This document shows positions 100 through 6,013 of a stretch of DNA of 6,013 nucleotides, piece after piece. How positions within the stretch are numbered: the first letter of the stretch is position 1; each line of letters begins with the position of its first letter. Origin of the DNA: a virus. The stretch is taken from IMG/VR virus record IMGVR_UViG_3300045988_003899, positions 1 through 6,013 of that record. One strand, given 5' to 3'. The translations under genes and the position numbers were made by a program. The notes under the pieces are model-generated. The model made no database searches. It was not told the DNA's origin and saw only the letters and a list, made by a program, of their open reading frames with translations.

Positions 100-326
100 A
101 AAGCGATTGGTACAATGCAGCACAAAGCTGGCAACAGATGCTCAGTACAACACATATGTCGCCATACGGACTGCAAAAAACCTTAACAGAAATCGGAGAC
201 GACACAAGCAAAGCAATTGACAAAAACGTGCCAAAGAAAAGCAGCAAAAAAAGCAACTATCAAGCGCCGCAGGACAAAACAGGGTCATACGGAGAAAAAA
301 GGAAACCGGGTGATTACTTAAAATGA
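1..326 (+). CDS. VP2: Minor capsid / DNA pilot protein VP2, C-terminal part (continuation of 5383..6013 across the circular junction; full gene is 858 nt, 285 aa)
   Basis: The frame is open from the window edge to TGA at 324-326 (codons start at position 3). It is in phase with the ORF starting at 5383 once 5914 nt is subtracted. The Ser/Gly/Ala-rich sequence with a basic tail is typical of microvirus VP2. The stop overlaps the VP4 start (ATGA at 323-326). Confidence 0.85.
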   Translation, partial: SGASMGLASSSALGVSRSGGFVPNAYESSSWSKSDWYNAAQSWQQMLSTTHMSPYGLQKTLTEIGDDTSKAIDKNVPKKSSKKSNYQAPQDKTGSYGEKRKPGDYLK

Positions 327-1342
327 GTTGTTACAAGCCATTAATAAGGCTGTACAACCCAGACAACAAAGAAATAAGCGGGCGGGTGTATTCACTTGCC
401 CGCTTTTCTCAAGTCTGCGGAAAACAGCTCAAATATGAAGATGTGATGTACAGAAAAGATGTCATGTTGATACCATGCGGGCAGTGCATCGGATGCAGAA
501 TAAGACAGAGAGAGGACTGGACAACACGTATAGAATTAGAAGCACGAGACTATCCGAAAGAAGAAGTGTGGTTTATCACACTAACATATGACGATGACCA
601 TGTACCAGGAATGATTATAAGCACAGGCGAAATCATGAGAAAAGTGCAATACGTCTGGAAAGCCGGAAAGAAAGCGCCTGAAAGCGTACAAACGTTACTG
701 TATACTGACGTTCAGAAATTCCTAAAACGTCTCAGGAAGGCTTACAGGGGCAAATTACGCTATTTTGTGGCAGGAGAGTATGGAGAACAAACAGCAAGAC
801 CACACTACCACATGATTCTATATGGATGGAGACCAACAGACCTGGAGCACCTATACAAGATACAACACAACGGATACTTTACAAGTAAATGGCTGGCAGA
901 CCTATGGGGCATGGGTCAAATACAGATAGCACAAGCAGTGCCGGAAACCTACAGATATGTTGCAGGATACGTCACGAAAAAAATGTACGAGATAGACGGA
1001 AAGAAAGCAAACCAATACTACGAATTGGGCCAACAAAAGCCATTCGCATGTATGAGCCTAAAACCGGGACTAGGAGACCACTATTATCAAGAACACAAAG
1101 CAGAAATATGGAGACAAGGATACATCCAATGTACAAACGGAAAACACGCACAAATTCCACGTTATTATGAAAAGATGATGGAAGCTGAAAACCCACAAAG
1201 ATTGTGGAGAATTAAACAAAACAGACAGGCAGCAGCCATAGCAGAAAATCGGCTAAAGTATGAAAACGCAGACTTTTCAGAGCAATGCGAAACAAAAGAA
1301 AGAGTTATCCGGAAGCAAATGAAGAAGAGTGGGACACTCTAA
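323..1342 (+). CDS. VP4: Replication initiation protein VP4 (HUH rolling-circle endonuclease, Microviridae protein A family)
   Basis: 339-aa ORF. N-terminal PCGQCIGCR Cys cluster. Motif I is FITLTY (from nt 572). The HUH motif is RPHYHMILYG (HYH at nt 803-811). The two-tyrosine catalytic motif YVAGYVTKK (Y212 and Y216, nt 956 and 968) matches the YxxxYxxKK layout of the phiX174 A protein family. Confidence 0.95.
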   Translation: MSCYKPLIRLYNPDNKEISGRVYSLARFSQVCGKQLKYEDVMYRKDVMLIPCGQCIGCRIRQREDWTTRIELEARDYPKEEVWFITLTYDDDHVPGMIISTGEIMRKVQYVWKAGKKAPESVQTLLYTDVQKFLKRLRKAYRGKLRYFVAGEYGEQTARPHYHMILYGWRPTDLEHLYKIQHNGYFTSKWLADLWGMGQIQIAQAVPETYRYVAGYVTKKMYEIDGKKANQYYELGQQKPFACMSLKPGLGDHYYQEHKAEIWRQGYIQCTNGKHAQIPRYYEKMMEAENPQRLWRIKQNRQAAAIAENRLKYENADFSEQCETKERVIRKQMKKSGTL

Positions 1343-1353
1343 CGGTGTCACCT

Positions 1354-1385
1354 AGCCCAGTACCTATCAAGTAAGGTACTGGGCT
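1354..1385 (+). repeat. Perfect 12-bp inverted repeat (AGCCCAGTACCT / AGGTACTGGGCT) with an 8-nt loop, 12 nt after the VP4 stop
   Basis: The reverse complement of 1354-1365 equals 1374-1385 exactly. It is followed by an A/T-rich stretch (ATAATAGTTTAAAG) but no clean T-run. It is a possible terminator or an ssDNA structural signal. Confidence 0.8.
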
Positions 1386-1429
1386 ATAATAGTTTAAAGA
1401 CTCCATGTATCAGCCTAGTCAGTGAATAA

Positions 1430-1457
1430 AAGGGGTTGACTTAAAAGTCAACCCCTT
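1430..1457 (+). terminator. 28-nt perfect palindrome AAGGGGTTGACTTAAAAGTCAACCCCTT; candidate end-of-operon terminator hairpin
   Basis: 1430-1442 is the exact reverse complement of 1445-1457, with a GC-rich base (GGGG/CCCC). Only TT follows on the + strand, while an A-run precedes it. The hairpin itself is certain; terminator function is only plausible. Confidence 0.4.
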
Positions 1458-1464
1458 GCGTCAC

Positions 1465-1480
1465 GCCCCAATCATGGGGC
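1465..1480 (+). repeat. Small hairpin GCCCCA-ATCA-TGGGGC (6-bp stem, 4-nt loop)
   Basis: The reverse complement of 1465-1470 equals 1475-1480. Confidence 0.5.
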
Positions 1481-1489
1481 TGCCGCTAG

Positions 1490-1536
1490 TACGCACATGC
1501 GCACGCGCGCGAAACGCGCACGCGCACATGCGCGTA
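1490..1536. repeat. GC-rich imperfect palindrome built from two strictly alternating purine/pyrimidine blocks (1491-1511 and 1515-1536) around an AAA centre
   Basis: Pairing 1490-1511 against 1515-1536 gives 18 of 22 complementary positions, with mismatches at 1495/1531, 1500/1526, 1503/1523 and 1506/1520. Every base in each arm alternates Pu/Py (CG, CA and TG steps). The 11-mer CGCACATGCGC occurs in both arms. Confidence 0.85.
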
Positions 1537-1544
1537 AATTAGTT

Positions 1545-1717
1545 TTCAACAGTTTCAACACTTTCAACAGGTTTTCAACATAAAAGTGCACAATAAAATC
1601 CGTCATAATGACGAACATTCAACAATTCAACAAATTTTCAACAAAACTTTCAACAGAGTTTTAAAGCAATAAATTAAGTAACAACGTTAAAATTTAACAC
1701 TATTCAACAATTCAACA
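1545..1717 (+). repeat. Iteron-like array: 10 direct copies of TTCAACA in three clusters (4 + 4 + 2)
   Basis: Exact copies start at 1545, 1554, 1563, 1574 | 1618, 1626, 1637, 1649 | 1703, 1711. All are in the same orientation, with intra-cluster spacing of 8-12 nt. The 16-mer ATTCAACAATTCAACA occurs twice (1617-1632 and 1702-1717). Confidence 0.9.
1601..1613. repeat. 13-bp perfect palindrome CGTCAT-A-ATGACG between iteron clusters 1 and 2
   Basis: The reverse complement of 1601-1606 equals 1608-1613. It could be an operator-like dimer site or a small hairpin. Confidence 0.5.
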
Positions 1718-1897
1718 GCACCTACTACTACGACTACAACAAGTTATATAATAAAGCAACATAAACGCGCACAGCGCTAAAAATGAATGGATTAAGCCGC
1801 ATTCCGCTAAGCTCCATACGGCAAGGCGCTAAAGCGCCATTCAAAACAAAGGAGCAAAACCGACTGCTAATATATCAATTAAAATTTCAAAAAAAGC

Positions 1898-1926
1898 TTG
1901 ACTTTTTTCTAAAAAAATGATAAAAT
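1898..1926 (+). promoter_or_regulatory. Near-consensus sigma70/sigmaA promoter: -35 TTGACT (1898-1903), 17-nt spacer, extended -10 TGaTAAAAT (1918-1926), A/T-rich UP-like tract upstream (about 1866-1897)
   Basis: The hexamers and spacing were read directly. The promoter lies about 28 nt upstream of the first cassette gene, whose SD is AGGAAGG at 1939-1945. It is the only convincing promoter found in the genome. Confidence 0.7.
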
Positions 1927-1953
1927 ATAATTACAGAAAGGAAGGTGCTAAAA

Positions 1954-2151
1954 ATGAAACACACCTACGAACTTAGAAGATTCAACGATGACGACAGTAT
2001 AACAACAGTCCTTAAACTTGAAGCAGAACCAAAATATGCAAAAGAAAGAGCAAAAGACTACGCGAACCGACACCCAGGTCTCTACTCACTACAAAAAATT
2101 GACACCATAGCAATGTATTTTACAGAAAAGGAGCTTGACAAAGATGATTAA
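1954..2151 (+). CDS. Hypothetical protein, 65 aa (first gene after the promoter; no recognisable motif)
   Basis: ATG at 1954 lies 8 nt after SD AGGAAGG (1939-1945). The ORF-track start at 1945 is a GTG inside the SD, so it is disfavoured. The product is acidic and helical-looking, with no TM segment. The ORF overlaps the next gene by 8 nt. Confidence 0.6.
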   Translation: MKHTYELRRFNDDDSITTVLKLEAEPKYAKERAKDYANRHPGLYSLQKIDTIAMYFTEKELDKDD

Positions 2152-2533
2152 ATGCTATATCATGGATACAGATGCAAACGAAAAAGTAGGTCAACACTTT
2201 AAAGTGCGAGAATTTGCATGCAAAGATGGCTCGCAAGTCGTGTTCATCGACAGCTATTTAGTATCCATTCTGGATATCCTCAGAAACCAAGTCGGAAAGC
2301 CGGTATACATAAACAGCGGATACAGGACACCGACAAGGAATAAAATGGTAGGCGGTGCAAAATACTCATACCACATGCGAGGAATGGCAGCAGATATCCG
2401 GGTTGAAGGAATGACCGCAAAAGAAATTGCCAACAAACTGAATAAAATCATTCCGCTTGGCTGCGGCATCATCGTATACAGCAATTGGGTACACATTGAC
2501 ACGCGTACCAAAGCCTACAGAAAGGGGGTATAA
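2144..2533 (+). CDS. Zinc D-Ala-D-Ala carboxypeptidase-type cell-wall peptidase, M15 family (Peptidase_M15_3 / M15A-like), putative endolysin, 129 aa
   Basis: Family motifs were read by eye: FKVREFACKDGS, SGYRTPTRNKMVGGAKYSYHMRGMAADI and WVHID. These give the H-x6-D...H-x-D zinc triad (H77 at nt 2372-2374, D84, H117). ATG at 2144 lies 10 nt after SD AAGGAG (2128-2133). The ORF-track start at 2135 is TTG. No signal peptide or TM segment is present. Confidence 0.85.
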   Translation: MIKCYIMDTDANEKVGQHFKVREFACKDGSQVVFIDSYLVSILDILRNQVGKPVYINSGYRTPTRNKMVGGAKYSYHMRGMAADIRVEGMTAKEIANKLNKIIPLGCGIIVYSNWVHIDTRTKAYRKGV

Positions 2534-2534
2534 A

Positions 2535-2657
2535 ATGGCACTTATTTCCATTAAGGACGTCAAGCAGGCAATCCGTCTCATGATGCAGATTTTGGAAAAG
2601 CTTGACGAAATCTATCATGCGCTGCATGACAGCATCAACGAAAAAGAAAAGGAGTAA
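2535..2657 (+). CDS. Hypothetical small protein, 40 aa, predicted amphipathic helix
   Basis: ATG at 2535 lies 6 nt after the G-rich SD AAGGGGG (2522-2528) and 1 nt after the peptidase stop. The ORF-track start at 2457 is a TTG inside the peptidase gene with no SD. Sequence: MALISIKDVKQAIRLMMQILEKLDEIYHALHDSINEKEKE. Confidence 0.5.
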   Translation: MALISIKDVKQAIRLMMQILEKLDEIYHALHDSINEKEKE

Positions 2658-2660
2658 ATA

Positions 2661-2885
2661 ATGATTCACAAGACGTGGAACGTAAGAGACCAGACCAAAG
2701 AAGTACTTGAAGAGCTGCTAAACCGAAAATACAAGGAAATCGATGGAAGCTATAAGATGCTACGCAAAGTATCCAACATCGAGAACGCAAAAAAGCTAGT
2801 GGACGAAATATGGCAAATGAAAAGTTTTACGAATGCAATTGAAATGGAACTCATGAGAAGGGAGTGTAACGATGGCGTATCGTAA
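2661..2885 (+). CDS. Hypothetical protein, 74 aa (helical, charged; no recognisable motif)
   Basis: ATG at 2661 lies 6 nt after SD AAGGAG (2649-2654) and 3 nt after the previous stop. Confidence 0.6.
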   Translation: MIHKTWNVRDQTKEVLEELLNRKYKEIDGSYKMLRKVSNIENAKKLVDEIWQMKSFTNAIEMELMRRECNDGVS

Positions 2886-2991
2886 AAAGATGAAGAGAAG
2901 CAAAGACGCGAGGATCTTCAACGTAACGGCAAGAAAAACGAAAAATATCAACCTAAGCCAGAAACCCATGCGGGGCGGCATCCGACTGTAA
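2872..2991 (+). CDS. VP8: Small highly basic DNA-binding / packaging peptide (gokushovirus ORF8/VP8-like, functional analogue of phiX174 J), 39 aa; not in the supplied ORF track
   Basis: Hand translation gives MAYRKKMKRSKDARIFNVTARKTKNINLSQKPMRGGIRL. It is Arg/Lys-rich and ends in MRGGIRL, as I recall for the Chlamydia-phage ORF8 C-terminus (MRGGIRF). SD AAGGGAG (2858-2864) lies 7 nt upstream. The ORF overlaps the previous one by 14 nt. Confidence 0.75.
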   Translation: MAYRKKMKRSKDARIFNVTARKTKNINLSQKPMRGGIRL

Positions 2992-3006
2992 AAAAGGAGA
3001 AAAAAA

Positions 3007-3246
3007 ATGGAACATCTGTATTTTGGCATTTGGGACAACGTGGCAAAATGCTACGCATGGGTAGGCGAAAGCAAAAACAATGCAACGTTTGCACGCATGT
3101 GCAACACAATGGCAAAGGACGAAAAAACCTTCATTGGACAGGCGCCGGGTGATTACATCGGCTACCGGTTAGCAGAATTTAACGATGAAACCGGCGAATT
3201 TAACAACGACAAGGAAAAAGTATGGGAGGGTAAGCCGAATGAATAA
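3007..3246 (+). CDS. VP5: Gokushovirus VP5/ORF5-like non-structural protein, 79 aa
   Basis: SD AAGGAG (2994-2999) lies 7 nt upstream. The pattern FGIWDNVAKCY...NNATFARMC...PGDYIGYRLAEFNDETGEF matches the conserved ORF5 layout as remembered (F.V.D.K...Y...N.A.A.R.F...PEDY.L..IG.FD..TG). Confidence 0.7.
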   Translation: MEHLYFGIWDNVAKCYAWVGESKNNATFARMCNTMAKDEKTFIGQAPGDYIGYRLAEFNDETGEFNNDKEKVWEGKPNE

Positions 3247-3646: not shown

Positions 3647-5343
3647 ACAGAAACAACGAAAGACACTTCTTACAAGTACCACAAATGCACACAAGCCGAA
3701 CACGGTTCAACCGTGACCAGACAAACCTAACCACATTCAACAGCGGCAGGCTAATTCCATTCTTTGTGGACGAAGTTTTGCCGGGAGACACCTTCCAGAT
3801 AGACACGAGCGCAATCATCCGCATGACAACACCAAAATTCCCGGTGATGGATGACGCATTCATCGACTTCTACTACTTCTATTGTCCAAACCGTATCCTG
3901 TGGGACAACTTCAAACAGTTCATGGGAGAAGTGGACAATACGCCATGGATGCCAACAAGAACATATCAAGTGCCAGAAATCGAAATCAACGGAACTGAAG
4001 CAAGCGGAAGACCGCTTAATGGCAGCATCCTAGACTACATGGGTGTGCCAACAAACGTAAAAGCACGGTTCAAAATAAACGCGTTGCCAGTCCGTGCATA
4101 CGTTATGATCTGGAACGAGTATTTCAGAGACCAAAACATTGAAAACGCAGCAAAATGGAAAAGCGACGACGGTAACGTACAATACACACAATCATACAAC
4201 GACGGTTCCGGAGCAAAAGACGAAATTGAAAAAACGCTTCAAGAAGCAATCACCGGAGGACTGTGTCTTCCCGTTAACCGTTTCCACGACTACTTCTCAA
4301 GCTGCTTGCCTTATCCGCAGCGTGGGCCGGAAGTAACCGTGCCAATGACAGGTAATGCGCCAGTAAGACTAGGAGACGCCTCCGGCAGATATGTAGATTA
4401 CGCTGGACCAGTAGAAATGGTGCTAAGTAGAAATGCCAATCAAAACGTACCGGGAAGTCTAGGATACGAGAACGCAACAGGAAAACCCAACGAAAAAAAG
4501 CAAATGCAATTCACTGGAGTTGAAAAAGCATCAGGTGAATCAGGAACGGGGGGCTGGATGTACACAGACCTAAGTTCTGTAGGAGCAACAACCATCAACG
4601 AACTGAGAAACGCAATTGCAGTGCAGCAGTACTATGAAGCAATGGCAAGAGGCGGCAGCCGATACCGTGAACAGGTACAGGCACTGTGGGACGTAACCAT
4701 CAGCGACAAAACGGCACAGATTCCGGAATATCTCGGCGGAGGACGCTATCACGTCAACATGAACCAAATCGTGCAGACAAGCGGACAGCAGAGCGAAAAC
4801 GATACACCAATTGGTGAAACCGGAGCAATGTCCGTAACGCCTATCAACGAAAGTTCCTTCACAAAGAGTTTTGAGGAACACGGGTTTGTAATCGGTGTGT
4901 TGTGCGTACGCCATAACAGAACGTACCAGCAGGGGCTTGAACGTTTCTGGAGTAGAAAGGACAGACTGGACTATTACGTGCCTCAGTTTGCAAACATTGG
5001 CGAACAGCCTGTAAAGAAAAAAGAAATCATGCTAACCGGTACGGCAACTGATGAAGAGACATTCGGCTACCAGGAGGCCTGGGCTGATTACCGAATGAAG
5101 CCAAACCGTGTAAGCGGCCTCATGCGAAGCAACGCAACAGGCACGTTGGACTTTTGGCACTACGCAGACAATTATTCGACCGTACCAACACTGTCTCAGG
5201 AATGGATGGCAGAAGGCAAAAGCGAAATTGCAAGAACACTCATCGTACAGAACGAACCGCAATTCTTTGGTGCAATCCGCGTAGCAAACAAAACCACACG
5301 TTGCATGCCGCTGTACAGTGTACCGGGCTTGTACAAACTATAA
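3643..5343 (+). CDS. VP1: Major capsid protein VP1 (Microviridae F-protein family), 566 aa
   Basis: N-terminal signature SRTRFNRDQTNLTTFNSGRLIPFFVDEVLPGDTF, then TPKFPVMDDAFIDFYYFYCPNRILWDNFKQFMGE. Further on, INELRNAIAVQQYYEAMARGGSRYRE. All are classic microvirus capsid motifs. Confidence 0.97.
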   Translation: MNRNNERHFLQVPQMHTSRTRFNRDQTNLTTFNSGRLIPFFVDEVLPGDTFQIDTSAIIRMTTPKFPVMDDAFIDFYYFYCPNRILWDNFKQFMGEVDNTPWMPTRTYQVPEIEINGTEASGRPLNGSILDYMGVPTNVKARFKINALPVRAYVMIWNEYFRDQNIENAAKWKSDDGNVQYTQSYNDGSGAKDEIEKTLQEAITGGLCLPVNRFHDYFSSCLPYPQRGPEVTVPMTGNAPVRLGDASGRYVDYAGPVEMVLSRNANQNVPGSLGYENATGKPNEKKQMQFTGVEKASGESGTGGWMYTDLSSVGATTINELRNAIAVQQYYEAMARGGSRYREQVQALWDVTISDKTAQIPEYLGGGRYHVNMNQIVQTSGQQSENDTPIGETGAMSVTPINESSFTKSFEEHGFVIGVLCVRHNRTYQQGLERFWSRKDRLDYYVPQFANIGEQPVKKKEIMLTGTATDEETFGYQEAWADYRMKPNRVSGLMRSNATGTLDFWHYADNYSTVPTLSQEWMAEGKSEIARTLIVQNEPQFFGAIRVANKTTRCMPLYSVPGLYKL

Positions 5344-5382: not shown

Positions 5383-6013
5383 ATGTCAGGATTATCAGGA
5401 TTCTTAACAGCACTAAACGTAGCAGGAAACGTAGCAAACACAATCGGAACTTTTGCAGGAGCAGCTAAAAACGTAGCCGGAGCGTTTGGCGGATGGGGAC
5501 AAACAGGCAATAGCCAAAGTAGCGGCGGCAGCACAAGCCAAGGCGGTGGACACTCCGAAAGCGGAAGTCAATCAGGAACTAACGTACAACAGGTCAACGA
5601 CTGGCTCAAGCAGGCATACGCATACCAAGGGCAAGAAGCAGCCATGCAGGGCAAATACAACAGCCAAAGCATGCTTAAACAGATGGGCTATAACACCTTA
5701 CAAGCAATCATGCAAGGCGTATACAACCACATCGAAAACAGTGTAGCAATGAACTACAACAGCTCAGAAGCACTAGCAAACAGAAACTGGCAAGAACACA
5801 TGTCAAGCACAGCATACCAAAGAGCAGTTGAGGACATGAAAAAAGCGGGGCTTAACCCAATCCTAGCATTCTCAAACGGTGGAGCAAGCACACCGGGCGG
5901 AAGCGCAGGAACGATCAGCGGAGCAAGCATGGGACTTGCAAGCAGCAGCGCACTAGGAGTAAGCCGAAGCGGTGGATTTGTACCTAACGCATACGAAAGC
6001 AGCAGCTGGAGCA
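5383..6013 (+). CDS. VP2: Minor capsid / DNA pilot protein VP2, N-terminal part (runs off the window; continues at position 100 after removing the 99-nt redundancy)
   Basis: ATG at 5383 is immediately preceded by an in-frame TAA. Hand translation gives MSGLSGFLTALNVAGNVANTIGTFAGAAKNVAGAFGGWG (hydrophobic, Gly-rich N-terminus) and a Gly/Ser/Gln linker. It then contains the conserved pilot-protein core NWQEHMSSTAYQRAVEDMKKAGLNPILAFS. The frame is open to the window end. Confidence 0.9.
   Translation, partial: MSGLSGFLTALNVAGNVANTIGTFAGAAKNVAGAFGGWGQTGNSQSSGGSTSQGGGHSESGSQSGTNVQQVNDWLKQAYAYQGQEAAMQGKYNSQSMLKQMGYNTLQAIMQGVYNHIENSVAMNYNSSEALANRNWQEHMSSTAYQRAVEDMKKAGLNPILAFSNGGASTPGGSAGTISGASMGLASSSALGVSRSGGFVPNAYESSSWS
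5915..6013. repeat. Terminal redundancy: second copy of the 99-nt sequence found at 1-99
   Basis: Identical to 1-99. Confidence 0.97.

Follow-up and report, generated by a model that had tools for sequence, protein, structure and literature searches.

Why does a small gut ssDNA phage carry ten same-strand copies of a single heptamer, TTCAACA, in its main non-coding region? To address this question we analysed a 6,013-nt stretch of viral DNA (hereafter, the window), which comprises one circular gokushovirus genome of 5,914 nt, positions 1-99 being repeated at 5915-6013. All genes lie on the + strand, i.e., VP2 (across the ends), VP4/Rep (323-1342), a 600-nt non-coding region, a cassette that includes a peptidase M15, an ORF5 homologue, the scaffold protein and VP1. 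The initial annotation described the repeats as an iteron-like array and listed as candidate roles the binding of VP4, a cassette protein or a host factor, a packaging or VP8-binding signal on the ssDNA, or a priming signal for complementary-strand synthesis.

The array itself was confirmed in every detail. TTCAACA occurs at 1545, 1554, 1563, 1574, 1618, 1626, 1637, 1649, 1703 and 1711, all on the + strand, with start-to-start spacings of 9, 9, 11 / 8, 11, 12 / 8; the only other copy is at 3736 and there are none on the - strand. The control count that had been suggested for the motif gave 11 copies in the window against 1.12 expected from 200 dinucleotide-preserving shuffles (largest value 6; no shuffle reached 11). 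The 16-mer ATTCAACAATTCAACA occurs at 1617-1632 and 1702-1717, 85 nt apart. The array lies between a hairpin cluster that folds very strongly as ssDNA (1343-1545; z = -8.9) and a strong promoter-like site, TTGACT-17-TGATAAAAT, at 1898-1926. An Rfam scan of the whole window found nothing relevant. Two refinements are needed: the conserved unit is longer than 7 nt, and the conserved element extends to about 1764, including a GC spacer, CTA triplets and an AT-rich stretch that had not been noted.

To determine whether the array is conserved, we searched for relatives. A segment of about 210 nt (window ~1542-1755) is conserved at 70-84% identity in about 50 GenBank gokushoviruses from human, pig and other faeces. 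Inspection of three of these showed that the segment is inverted relative to fixed flanks in MG945694 and KX513868, and in the same orientation as the window in MG945447; KT264791 also carries it inverted, judged from the motif positions relative to its VP4. A first viral scan requiring three TTCAACA copies was noisy, as about two thirds of the hits were coding tandem repeats with periods of 9 or 12 nt in large viruses. Scans of IMG/VR brought the total to 124 sequences carrying the signature, of which at least 122 are gokushoviruses, with VP4 identities of 37-95% to the window. Of the 114 that could be placed, the module is inverted and downstream of VP4 in 83 (VP4 identity 42-95%), direct and just upstream of VP4 in 26 (below 42%), and direct and downstream of VP4 in 5 (the window group; 80% or more). 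The five in the window's group have modules 89-93% identical to the window's, against 78-81% for the inverted modules of the same clade, indicating one inversion whose descendants have since diverged. Independent capture in different orientations was rejected for this clade, as the direct modules nest within its inverted modules.

The module is flanked by a 7-bp inverted repeat (TGCGCGT at 1529-1535 and ACGCGCA at 1765-1771), and relatives have analogous short GC-rich inverted repeats at the module borders, e.g., AGCGCTGT/ACAGCGCT in one relative (L002 in our numbering of loci) and CGCCGT/ACGGCG in another (L003). Both orientations exist among relatives, although at the level of assemblies the direct orientation forms a single lineage, and four assemblies of this genotype from three samples all share one orientation. 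The identical VP4 occurs on five contigs from three human-gut samples, and the four contigs that were read carry the array in the same orientation. One 9.2-kb contig joins this phage to Gram-negative-like genes, but the junction lies inside VP2 and the phage part runs off the contig end, and we regard it as a chimera or dead fragment. We found no evidence of integration or of active switching in these contigs.

These distributions bear on the phage-protein and ssDNA readings. Iterons of theta plasmids, and Rep-binding repeats of rolling-circle plasmids and CRESS-DNA viruses, are likewise same-orientation direct repeats at roughly helical spacing in an origin region, but iterons co-vary with their cognate Rep and are replicon-specific. 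Here the exact motif persists while VP4 identity falls from 95% to 37% and the accessory genes change, no theta-type Rep is encoded, and the same logo and spacing occur in bacterial dnaA-dnaN origins (below). A packaging or priming signal on the ssDNA is also not supported, because the module is inverted relative to the genes in 83 of 114 relatives, so that the packaged strand carries either TTCAACA or TGTTGAA, and because the module is almost unstructured as ssDNA (z = -2.4). Its occurrence in either orientation and at two genome positions, without ssDNA structure, points instead to function at the level of the duplex. In favour of these readings are only the direct-repeat array itself and its place in the main non-coding region next to hairpins, and we consider them very unlikely. 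One caveat is that in this window the + strand carries the CTACTAC strand, which in B. subtilis is the DnaD-binding strand, and therefore a DnaD-nucleated priming role on ssDNA is not strictly excluded.

To reveal what the unit is, we oriented 44 phage modules by the motif. They share one architecture: 3-4 units, a spacer containing GCACAA, 4 units, an AT-rich spacer of about 45 nt, 2 units, a 4-nt GC-rich spacer, CTACTACTAC(g/t)(a/c)CTACAACAAG, and AT-rich DNA. In 400 units from these modules the logo is the 9-mer (T/C)TTTCAACA, with T at position -1 in 87%. The only substitution at the fourth heptamer position (box position 6) is A to C (365 A, 35 C, 0 G, 0 T). At homologous positions the unit becomes TTTTCCACA (32 cases) or the perfect DnaA box TTATCCACA (7 cases). 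The form TTTTCAACA differs from the relaxed DnaA-box consensus TTWTNCACA only at position 6, and a proposed mollicute DnaA-box consensus, TT(T/A)TCAACA, already has A at this position.

Binding by another host regulator that recognises tandem direct repeats was considered at this point. The reverse complement, TGTTGAA, is one base from the Spo0A box (TGNCGAA; TGTCGAA in phage phi29), the central palindrome contains the only TGACGAA (1609-1615), and the spacing is about one helical turn. However, none of the 400 units has the 0A consensus TTCGACA, the only variation runs towards the DnaA consensus, and the 0A-like palindrome is not conserved across clades. Spo0A could still cross-bind such boxes, as it does at B. 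subtilis oriC, but that would be secondary. Direct repeats of the OmpR/PhoB/WalR type, like Spo0A boxes, leave unexplained the GC spacer, the trios, the AT-rich context and the identity with bacterial origins described below, and this class of reading is very unlikely.

Published work defines the oriC basal unwinding system (BUS) as one DnaA box or a tandem pair, a spacer whose last 4-5 bp are GC-rich (PMC8235120), at least three DnaA-trios with a central A (consensus 3'-GAT-5'), and an AT-rich region, and we compared the window with this order. Putative DnaA-box cluster 1 (1543-1580, +) has four head-to-tail boxes (GTTTTCAACA-type 9-mers; heptamers at 1545, 1554, 1563 and 1574), aligns with boxes of bacterial origins, and its fourth box is TTTTCCACA, which fits the relaxed DnaA consensus, at the homologous position in many relatives. 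A central spacer (1581-1616) contains GTGCACAA and the small palindrome CGTCAtaaTGACG (1601-1613); GCACAA is conserved in all phage clades, whereas the palindrome is specific to some clades and is replaced by GCACAAA..TTTGTGC in others. Cluster 2 (1616-1655, +) has four boxes (heptamers at 1618, 1626, 1637 and 1649), of which the first two form an 8-nt-spaced tandem pair and the third is TTATCCACA in seven relatives (loci L010, L016, L034, L039, L094, L113 and L116) and TTTTCCACA in others. An AT-rich spacer of about 47 nt (1656-1700) has a small AACGTT palindrome, and bacterial origins have a spacer of similar length (45-60 nt) at the same place.

The proximal tandem pair (1701-1717, +; TATTCAACA / AATTCAACA) points towards the trios, where relatives have TTTTCAACTTTTCCACA and bacterial origins have TTCAACAtTTC(A/C)ACA with the same 8-9 nt spacing. 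It is followed by the 4-nt GC-rich spacer GCAC (1718-1721), which is exactly 4 nt in the majority of 42 phage modules. The DnaA-trio element (1722-1742, - strand) reads CTA CTA CTA CGA CTA CAA CAA on the top strand, i.e., 3'-GAT GAT GAT GCT GAT GTT GTT-5' on the bottom strand, so that three consecutive consensus trios (1722-1730; the array ends in CTACTACTACGACTAC) are followed by the off-consensus CGA, then CTA, CAA and CAA. The AT-rich putative unwinding element (GTTATATAATAAAGCAACATAA, 1743-1764) is 82% AT against 55% for the genome and contains TATAAT at 1747-1752; within it CAACAAGTTATATA is conserved in all phage clades, whereas bacterial origins are simply AT-rich here. Together the window reads TTCAACAaTTCAACA-GCAC-CTACTACTACGACTACAACAAG-TTATATAATAAAG (1703-1756), with TTCAACAaTTCAACA at 1703-1717 and CTACTACTAC after the spacer, and most relatives have TTTTCCAC(A/T), exactly 4 nt, and 3-5 CTA triplets. 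The trios were not part of the pattern that first retrieved these genomes, and thus their presence in 42 of 44 modules is an independent finding. At least 122 gokushoviruses with VP4 identities of 37-95% keep boxes, spacer, trios and the AT-rich end.

The order and polarity match those of Firmicutes origins. The window reads gCACCTACTACTA and C. difficile oriC2 reads CACCTACTACTA.., a shared sequence; the C. difficile element is 5'-CACCTACTACTATTACTACTATGA-3', preceded by three boxes and followed by the unwinding element. In B. subtilis incC (DnaA-boxes 6/7, GGCC, DnaA-trios, AT-rich DNA) the strand complementary to the trios is 5'-CTACTATTACTTCTACTA-3' (PMC10201434), with the same strand relationship, and the orientation of the proximal boxes is essential (PMC6669920). 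Further boxes lie upstream and the total length is about 200 bp. The phage element differs in sitting in a 5.9-kb ssDNA phage genome, in its TTCAACA-type boxes, in being inverted or relocated among relatives, and in the phage-specific CAACAAGTTATATA after the trios. By the BUS-finder rule (a box with at most 2 mismatches to the species' motif within 0-16 bp of the trios; PMC8287927), the window's proximal boxes have 3 and 4 mismatches to TTATCCACA, the E. coli motif, but 1 and 2 mismatches to the clade consensus TTTTCAACA derived from 30 bacterial origins, so that the outcome depends on the motif chosen; most relatives have TTTTCCACA (1 mismatch to TTATCCACA) with a 4-nt spacer.

To test this similarity independently, a pattern derived only from the phage modules (TTCAAC-N1-4-TTCMAC-N3-8-CTACTACTAC) was scanned across one genome per bacterial species. 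It retrieved at least 120 loci, and of 120 loci, 76 lie between dnaA and dnaN, 25 just upstream of dnaN and 7 just downstream of dnaA (108 in total, with the same box polarity), 1 is a binned microvirus and 11 are other. The flanking DnaA and beta clamp genes were confirmed by Pfam. Most loci come from gut or rumen Clostridia labelled Ruminococcus, Oscillospiraceae, Acutalibacteraceae, Ruthenibacterium or Eubacteriales, although oversampling of Oscillospirales cannot be excluded. In these Clostridia (e.g., bacterial loci L127, L136, L147, L150, L172 and L176) the whole predicted origin is built from same-strand TTCAACA/TTCCACA boxes, up to 18 in 300 nt. Other phyla, such as Selenomonas, Prochlorococcus, Geobacter and Gemmatimonas, have only the proximal TTCAACAnTTCCACA pair together with canonical boxes elsewhere.

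A profile of 42 phage modules aligned nearly end to end with Oscillospirales origins (E = 1e-17 to 1e-10), with no hits on reversed-sequence controls. Box logo and spacing were indistinguishable between 30 bacterial origins and 42 phage modules, with position 6 being A 0.92 / C 0.08 and neighbour spacings peaking at 8, 9 and 11 in both. The 8-9-nt proximal pair, the gccc/cccc spacer and CTACTACTAC are also shared, whereas the bacterial origins have more boxes, some inverted boxes and longer perfect CTA runs, and are flanked by dnaA and dnaN. TTCAACA-rich origins co-occur with a DnaA recognition helix DHST(I/V)VY, and canonical-box origins with DHTTV(L/I/M)H. In E. coli numbering (D433 to H439, consistent with published D433 and L438 contacts) the changes are T435S, V437I (absent in the DHSTVVY variants), L438V and H439Y. 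Together these results make TTCAACA the DnaA box of this bacterial clade as inferred from sequence, the binding of TTCAACA by any Oscillospirales DnaA and the firing of these predicted origins being without experimental evidence. A strict canonical-box BUS pattern scanned in viral contigs gave five hits, none in a microvirus, and so did not show origin mimics with canonical boxes in other microviruses.

We conclude with high confidence that the array belongs to a DnaA-box/oriC-type element of about 210 bp (window ~1543-1764), a compact, phage-borne equivalent of the chromosomal origin between dnaA and dnaN in Oscillospirales (Ruminococcaceae/Oscillospiraceae and relatives). It is not a chromosomal origin, as it lies in a gokushovirus genome between VP4 and the accessory genes. 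The interpretation of the initial annotation was therefore only partly supported: the repeats are a real, non-random, origin-type set of putative protein-binding sites and a host factor was among the proposed binders, but plasmid-type iterons and ssDNA signals were not supported. In the proposed mechanism, once the incoming ssDNA has been converted to the double-stranded replicative form, host DnaA-ATP would fill the box array, oligomerise from the proximal pair onto the trio strand (the - strand in this window) and open the AT-rich region at 1743-1764. The open region would most likely be used to load the host helicase and replisome, so that the replicative form is copied or maintained by host initiation machinery alongside VP4-driven rolling-circle synthesis. 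What the analysis establishes is the sequence identity of the element, its collinearity with real origins, its conservation across a very divergent phage group, and its occurrence in two genome positions and both orientations; that DnaA binds, that the duplex opens and what the opening serves are inferred. The model as a whole is only slightly more likely than not, and a role in replication initiation or maintenance of the replicative form is about as likely as all the alternatives together. Known microviruses replicate by rolling circle and are not known to use DnaA, as in phiX174, and VP4 here is an intact HUH Rep, so a second initiation mode is not obviously needed.

The position of the module hints at coupling with VP4 rather than autonomous theta replication. 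In 109 of 114 placed genomes the unwinding end faces the VP4 gene, whether the module lies downstream (83) or upstream (26) of it, and that end abuts strong hairpins or GC palindromes. DnaA might thus open the AT-rich end only to present ssDNA, which HUH endonucleases require, or to drive extrusion of the neighbouring hairpins and palindromes for nicking by VP4, the module being an accessory part of the plus-strand origin. The phage-specific CAACAAGTTATATA, which follows the trios in every clade and is absent from bacterial origins, weakly resembles the phiX174 origin core CAACTTGATATTAATAAC (10 of 18 positions). However, inversion places the conserved sequence on the opposite strand relative to the genes, so a strand-specific nick site inside the module would change which strand is displaced and packaged. 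In addition, the window's lineage (5 genomes; 75-86% genome identity to the window for the other four) is viable with the unwinding end moved about 210 bp away from the hairpins, and no nick motif has been identified. We consider this reading possible but unlikely.

Titration of DnaA was also considered, in which many copies of the replicative form, each with 10-12 boxes, would block new rounds of host chromosome replication and derepress the dnaA-dnaN operon, as datA or plasmid-borne DnaA-box clusters can do. The box density equals that of a whole origin, a sink would be independent of orientation and position, and plasmid-borne DnaA-box regions of B. subtilis oriC (the 'inc' regions) perturb initiation. 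Titration needs only boxes, however, and does not explain the strict conservation of the 4-nt spacer, the trios, their polarity relative to the proximal pair, and the AT-rich end across phages sharing only 37% VP4 identity, which argues for opening rather than mere titration and makes a sink unlikely. Less likely still is transcriptional control, in which DnaA would time expression from the adjacent promoters (TATAAT at 1747-1752; 1898-1926) according to host replication status. DnaA regulates promoters near DnaA boxes in many bacteria (e.g., PMC13438810), and in this window the array lies upstream of the main promoter, but the module is inverted in most relatives and lies in front of VP4 in one clade, so that there is no fixed geometry with any promoter, and trios and an unwinding element are not needed for this role.

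Comparison with other replicons shows what is new. Plasmid and phage origins with auxiliary DnaA boxes (P1 oriR, pSC101, RK2 oriV, F) likewise recruit host DnaA next to an AT-rich region, but depend on their own initiator bound to true iterons, with DnaA only assisting, whereas here there is no theta-type initiator gene or iteron set and the element has the complete chromosomal BUS including trios. The phiX174 origin, a 30-bp site in gene A nicked by protein A of a phage from the same virus family, shares an AT-rich sequence near a CAAC..G core, but has no repeats, is not known to need DnaA and lies inside a gene. The datA clusters and the Spo0A boxes of phi29 are also sites for host master regulators that couple a replicon to host physiology, but datA lacks trios and an unwinding element, and the phi29 box sequence was absent from the 400 units. 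DnaA boxes, trios and unwinding elements are thus known parts, whereas our searches of open-access literature found no paper linking microviruses to DnaA or oriC and none describing a phage-borne oriC-type unwinding module.

A more speculative possibility, which we consider doubtful, is that these gokushoviruses carry a functional minichromosome origin, their double-stranded replicative form being fired by host DnaA once per cell cycle and inherited like an oriC plasmid. This would give an integrase-free, lysogeny-like carrier state in Oscillospirales, would explain the long-term stability of Microviridae in the human gut, and would allow hosts of uncultured phages to be read from their origin mimic.

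The origin match, the Shine-Dalgarno-rich ribosome-binding sites and the sigma-70-type extended -10 promoter fit a Firmicutes host, and Oscillospirales is the best and a likely candidate, within the limits of the bacterial scan. The hosts of gut gokushoviruses are largely unknown, and the clade-specific DnaA-box variant, together with matching origin architecture, points to Oscillospirales and offers a cultivation-independent marker of host. For the bacteria, the analysis shows that predicted Ruminococcaceae/Oscillospiraceae origins are built from TTCAACA boxes and that this co-varies with changes in the DnaA recognition helix, which we also did not find described. For the phages, microviruses are the textbook case of DnaA-independent rolling-circle replication, and a large group of gut gokushoviruses carrying a complete, predicted origin-opening module of host type implies a second, host-initiator-dependent step in their life cycle, be it replication, maintenance or takeover.

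Inspection of the regions flanking the module revealed four strong ssDNA hairpins directly after the VP4 stop (window 1343-1545), at 1353-1386, 1430-1457, 1458-1487, and the GC-rich alternating palindromes at 1491-1536. The predicted fold of this region is -55 kcal/mol with z = -8.9, and the first hairpin (CCCAGTACCT-loop-AGGTACTGGG) is conserved in three of the retrieved sequences, L001-L003. These hairpins are candidates for the complementary-strand origin or the VP4 nick site. In the module itself, CAACAAGTTATATA (1743-1756), which directly follows the trios, is conserved in every phage clade but not in bacterial origins, and weakly resembles the phiX174 origin core. A 7-bp inverted repeat, TGCGCGT (1529-1535) and ACGCGCA (1765-1771), brackets the module, and relatives have analogous short GC-rich repeats at the borders. 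The repeat is a plausible substrate for the inversion seen among lineages, by recombination or by template switching on ssDNA.

To the right of the module, a conserved non-coding "leader" was identified at 1757-1860 (ACGCGCACAGCGCT..GAATGGATTAGCCG..GGCGCTAAAGCGCC..TTCAAAACAAAGGAG), and is shared with L001-L003 and with two further retrieved sequences, L251 and L294. The 45-aa ORF at 1783-1920 is not conserved, given that L002 has a stop after two codons, and a search against Rfam gave no match for the leader. Two near-consensus sigma-70-type promoters are present at 1898-1926 and 2135-2163, the first of which (TTGACT-17-TAAAAT with a TG extension) precedes the accessory cassette. Similar TTGACA..TGATATAAT promoters occur at the same place in relatives.

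A 99.97% identical copy of window 215-3050 was detected in a 9,200-nt contig (L345; ENA ERZ772880, NODE_4143), where it is joined, inside VP2, to 6.4 kb of bacterial genes that include an outer-membrane beta-barrel protein. This is probably an assembly chimera, although a defective insertion cannot be excluded. Two contigs retrieved from bacterial bins are a caveat for the host inference, i.e., L200 (5,739 nt), a complete microvirus contig sitting in a bin assigned to "Bacteroides sp. CAG:545", and L237, a TTCAACA-rich origin next to dnaA in a bin assigned to "Alistipes". Both are likely binning artefacts.

Among the bacterial loci (L125-L244; for example, L176, L172, and L150), the dnaA-dnaN origins of Ruminococcus, Oscillospiraceae, and relatives are built from TTCAACA-type boxes, and this co-varies with a DnaA recognition helix DHST(I/V)VY in place of DHTTV(L/I/M)H. 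We did not find this variant origin code described in the literature searched. Two Mesoaciditoga MAG contigs (L130 and L240) carry TTCAACA arrays (8-10 copies), trios, and AT-rich DNA with the same layout but with no dnaA or dnaN nearby, and may represent an origin displaced from dnaA in Thermotogota-like genomes. Two gut viral contigs of about 20 kb (L044 and L082) carry three non-coding TTCAACA copies at 9 and 12 nt spacing, without trios, whereas a 23.6-kb viral contig (L281) carries a genuine-looking box array, CTACTACTACTAC, and AT-rich DNA. Other phages or plasmid-like elements from the same habitat may also carry DnaA-box modules.
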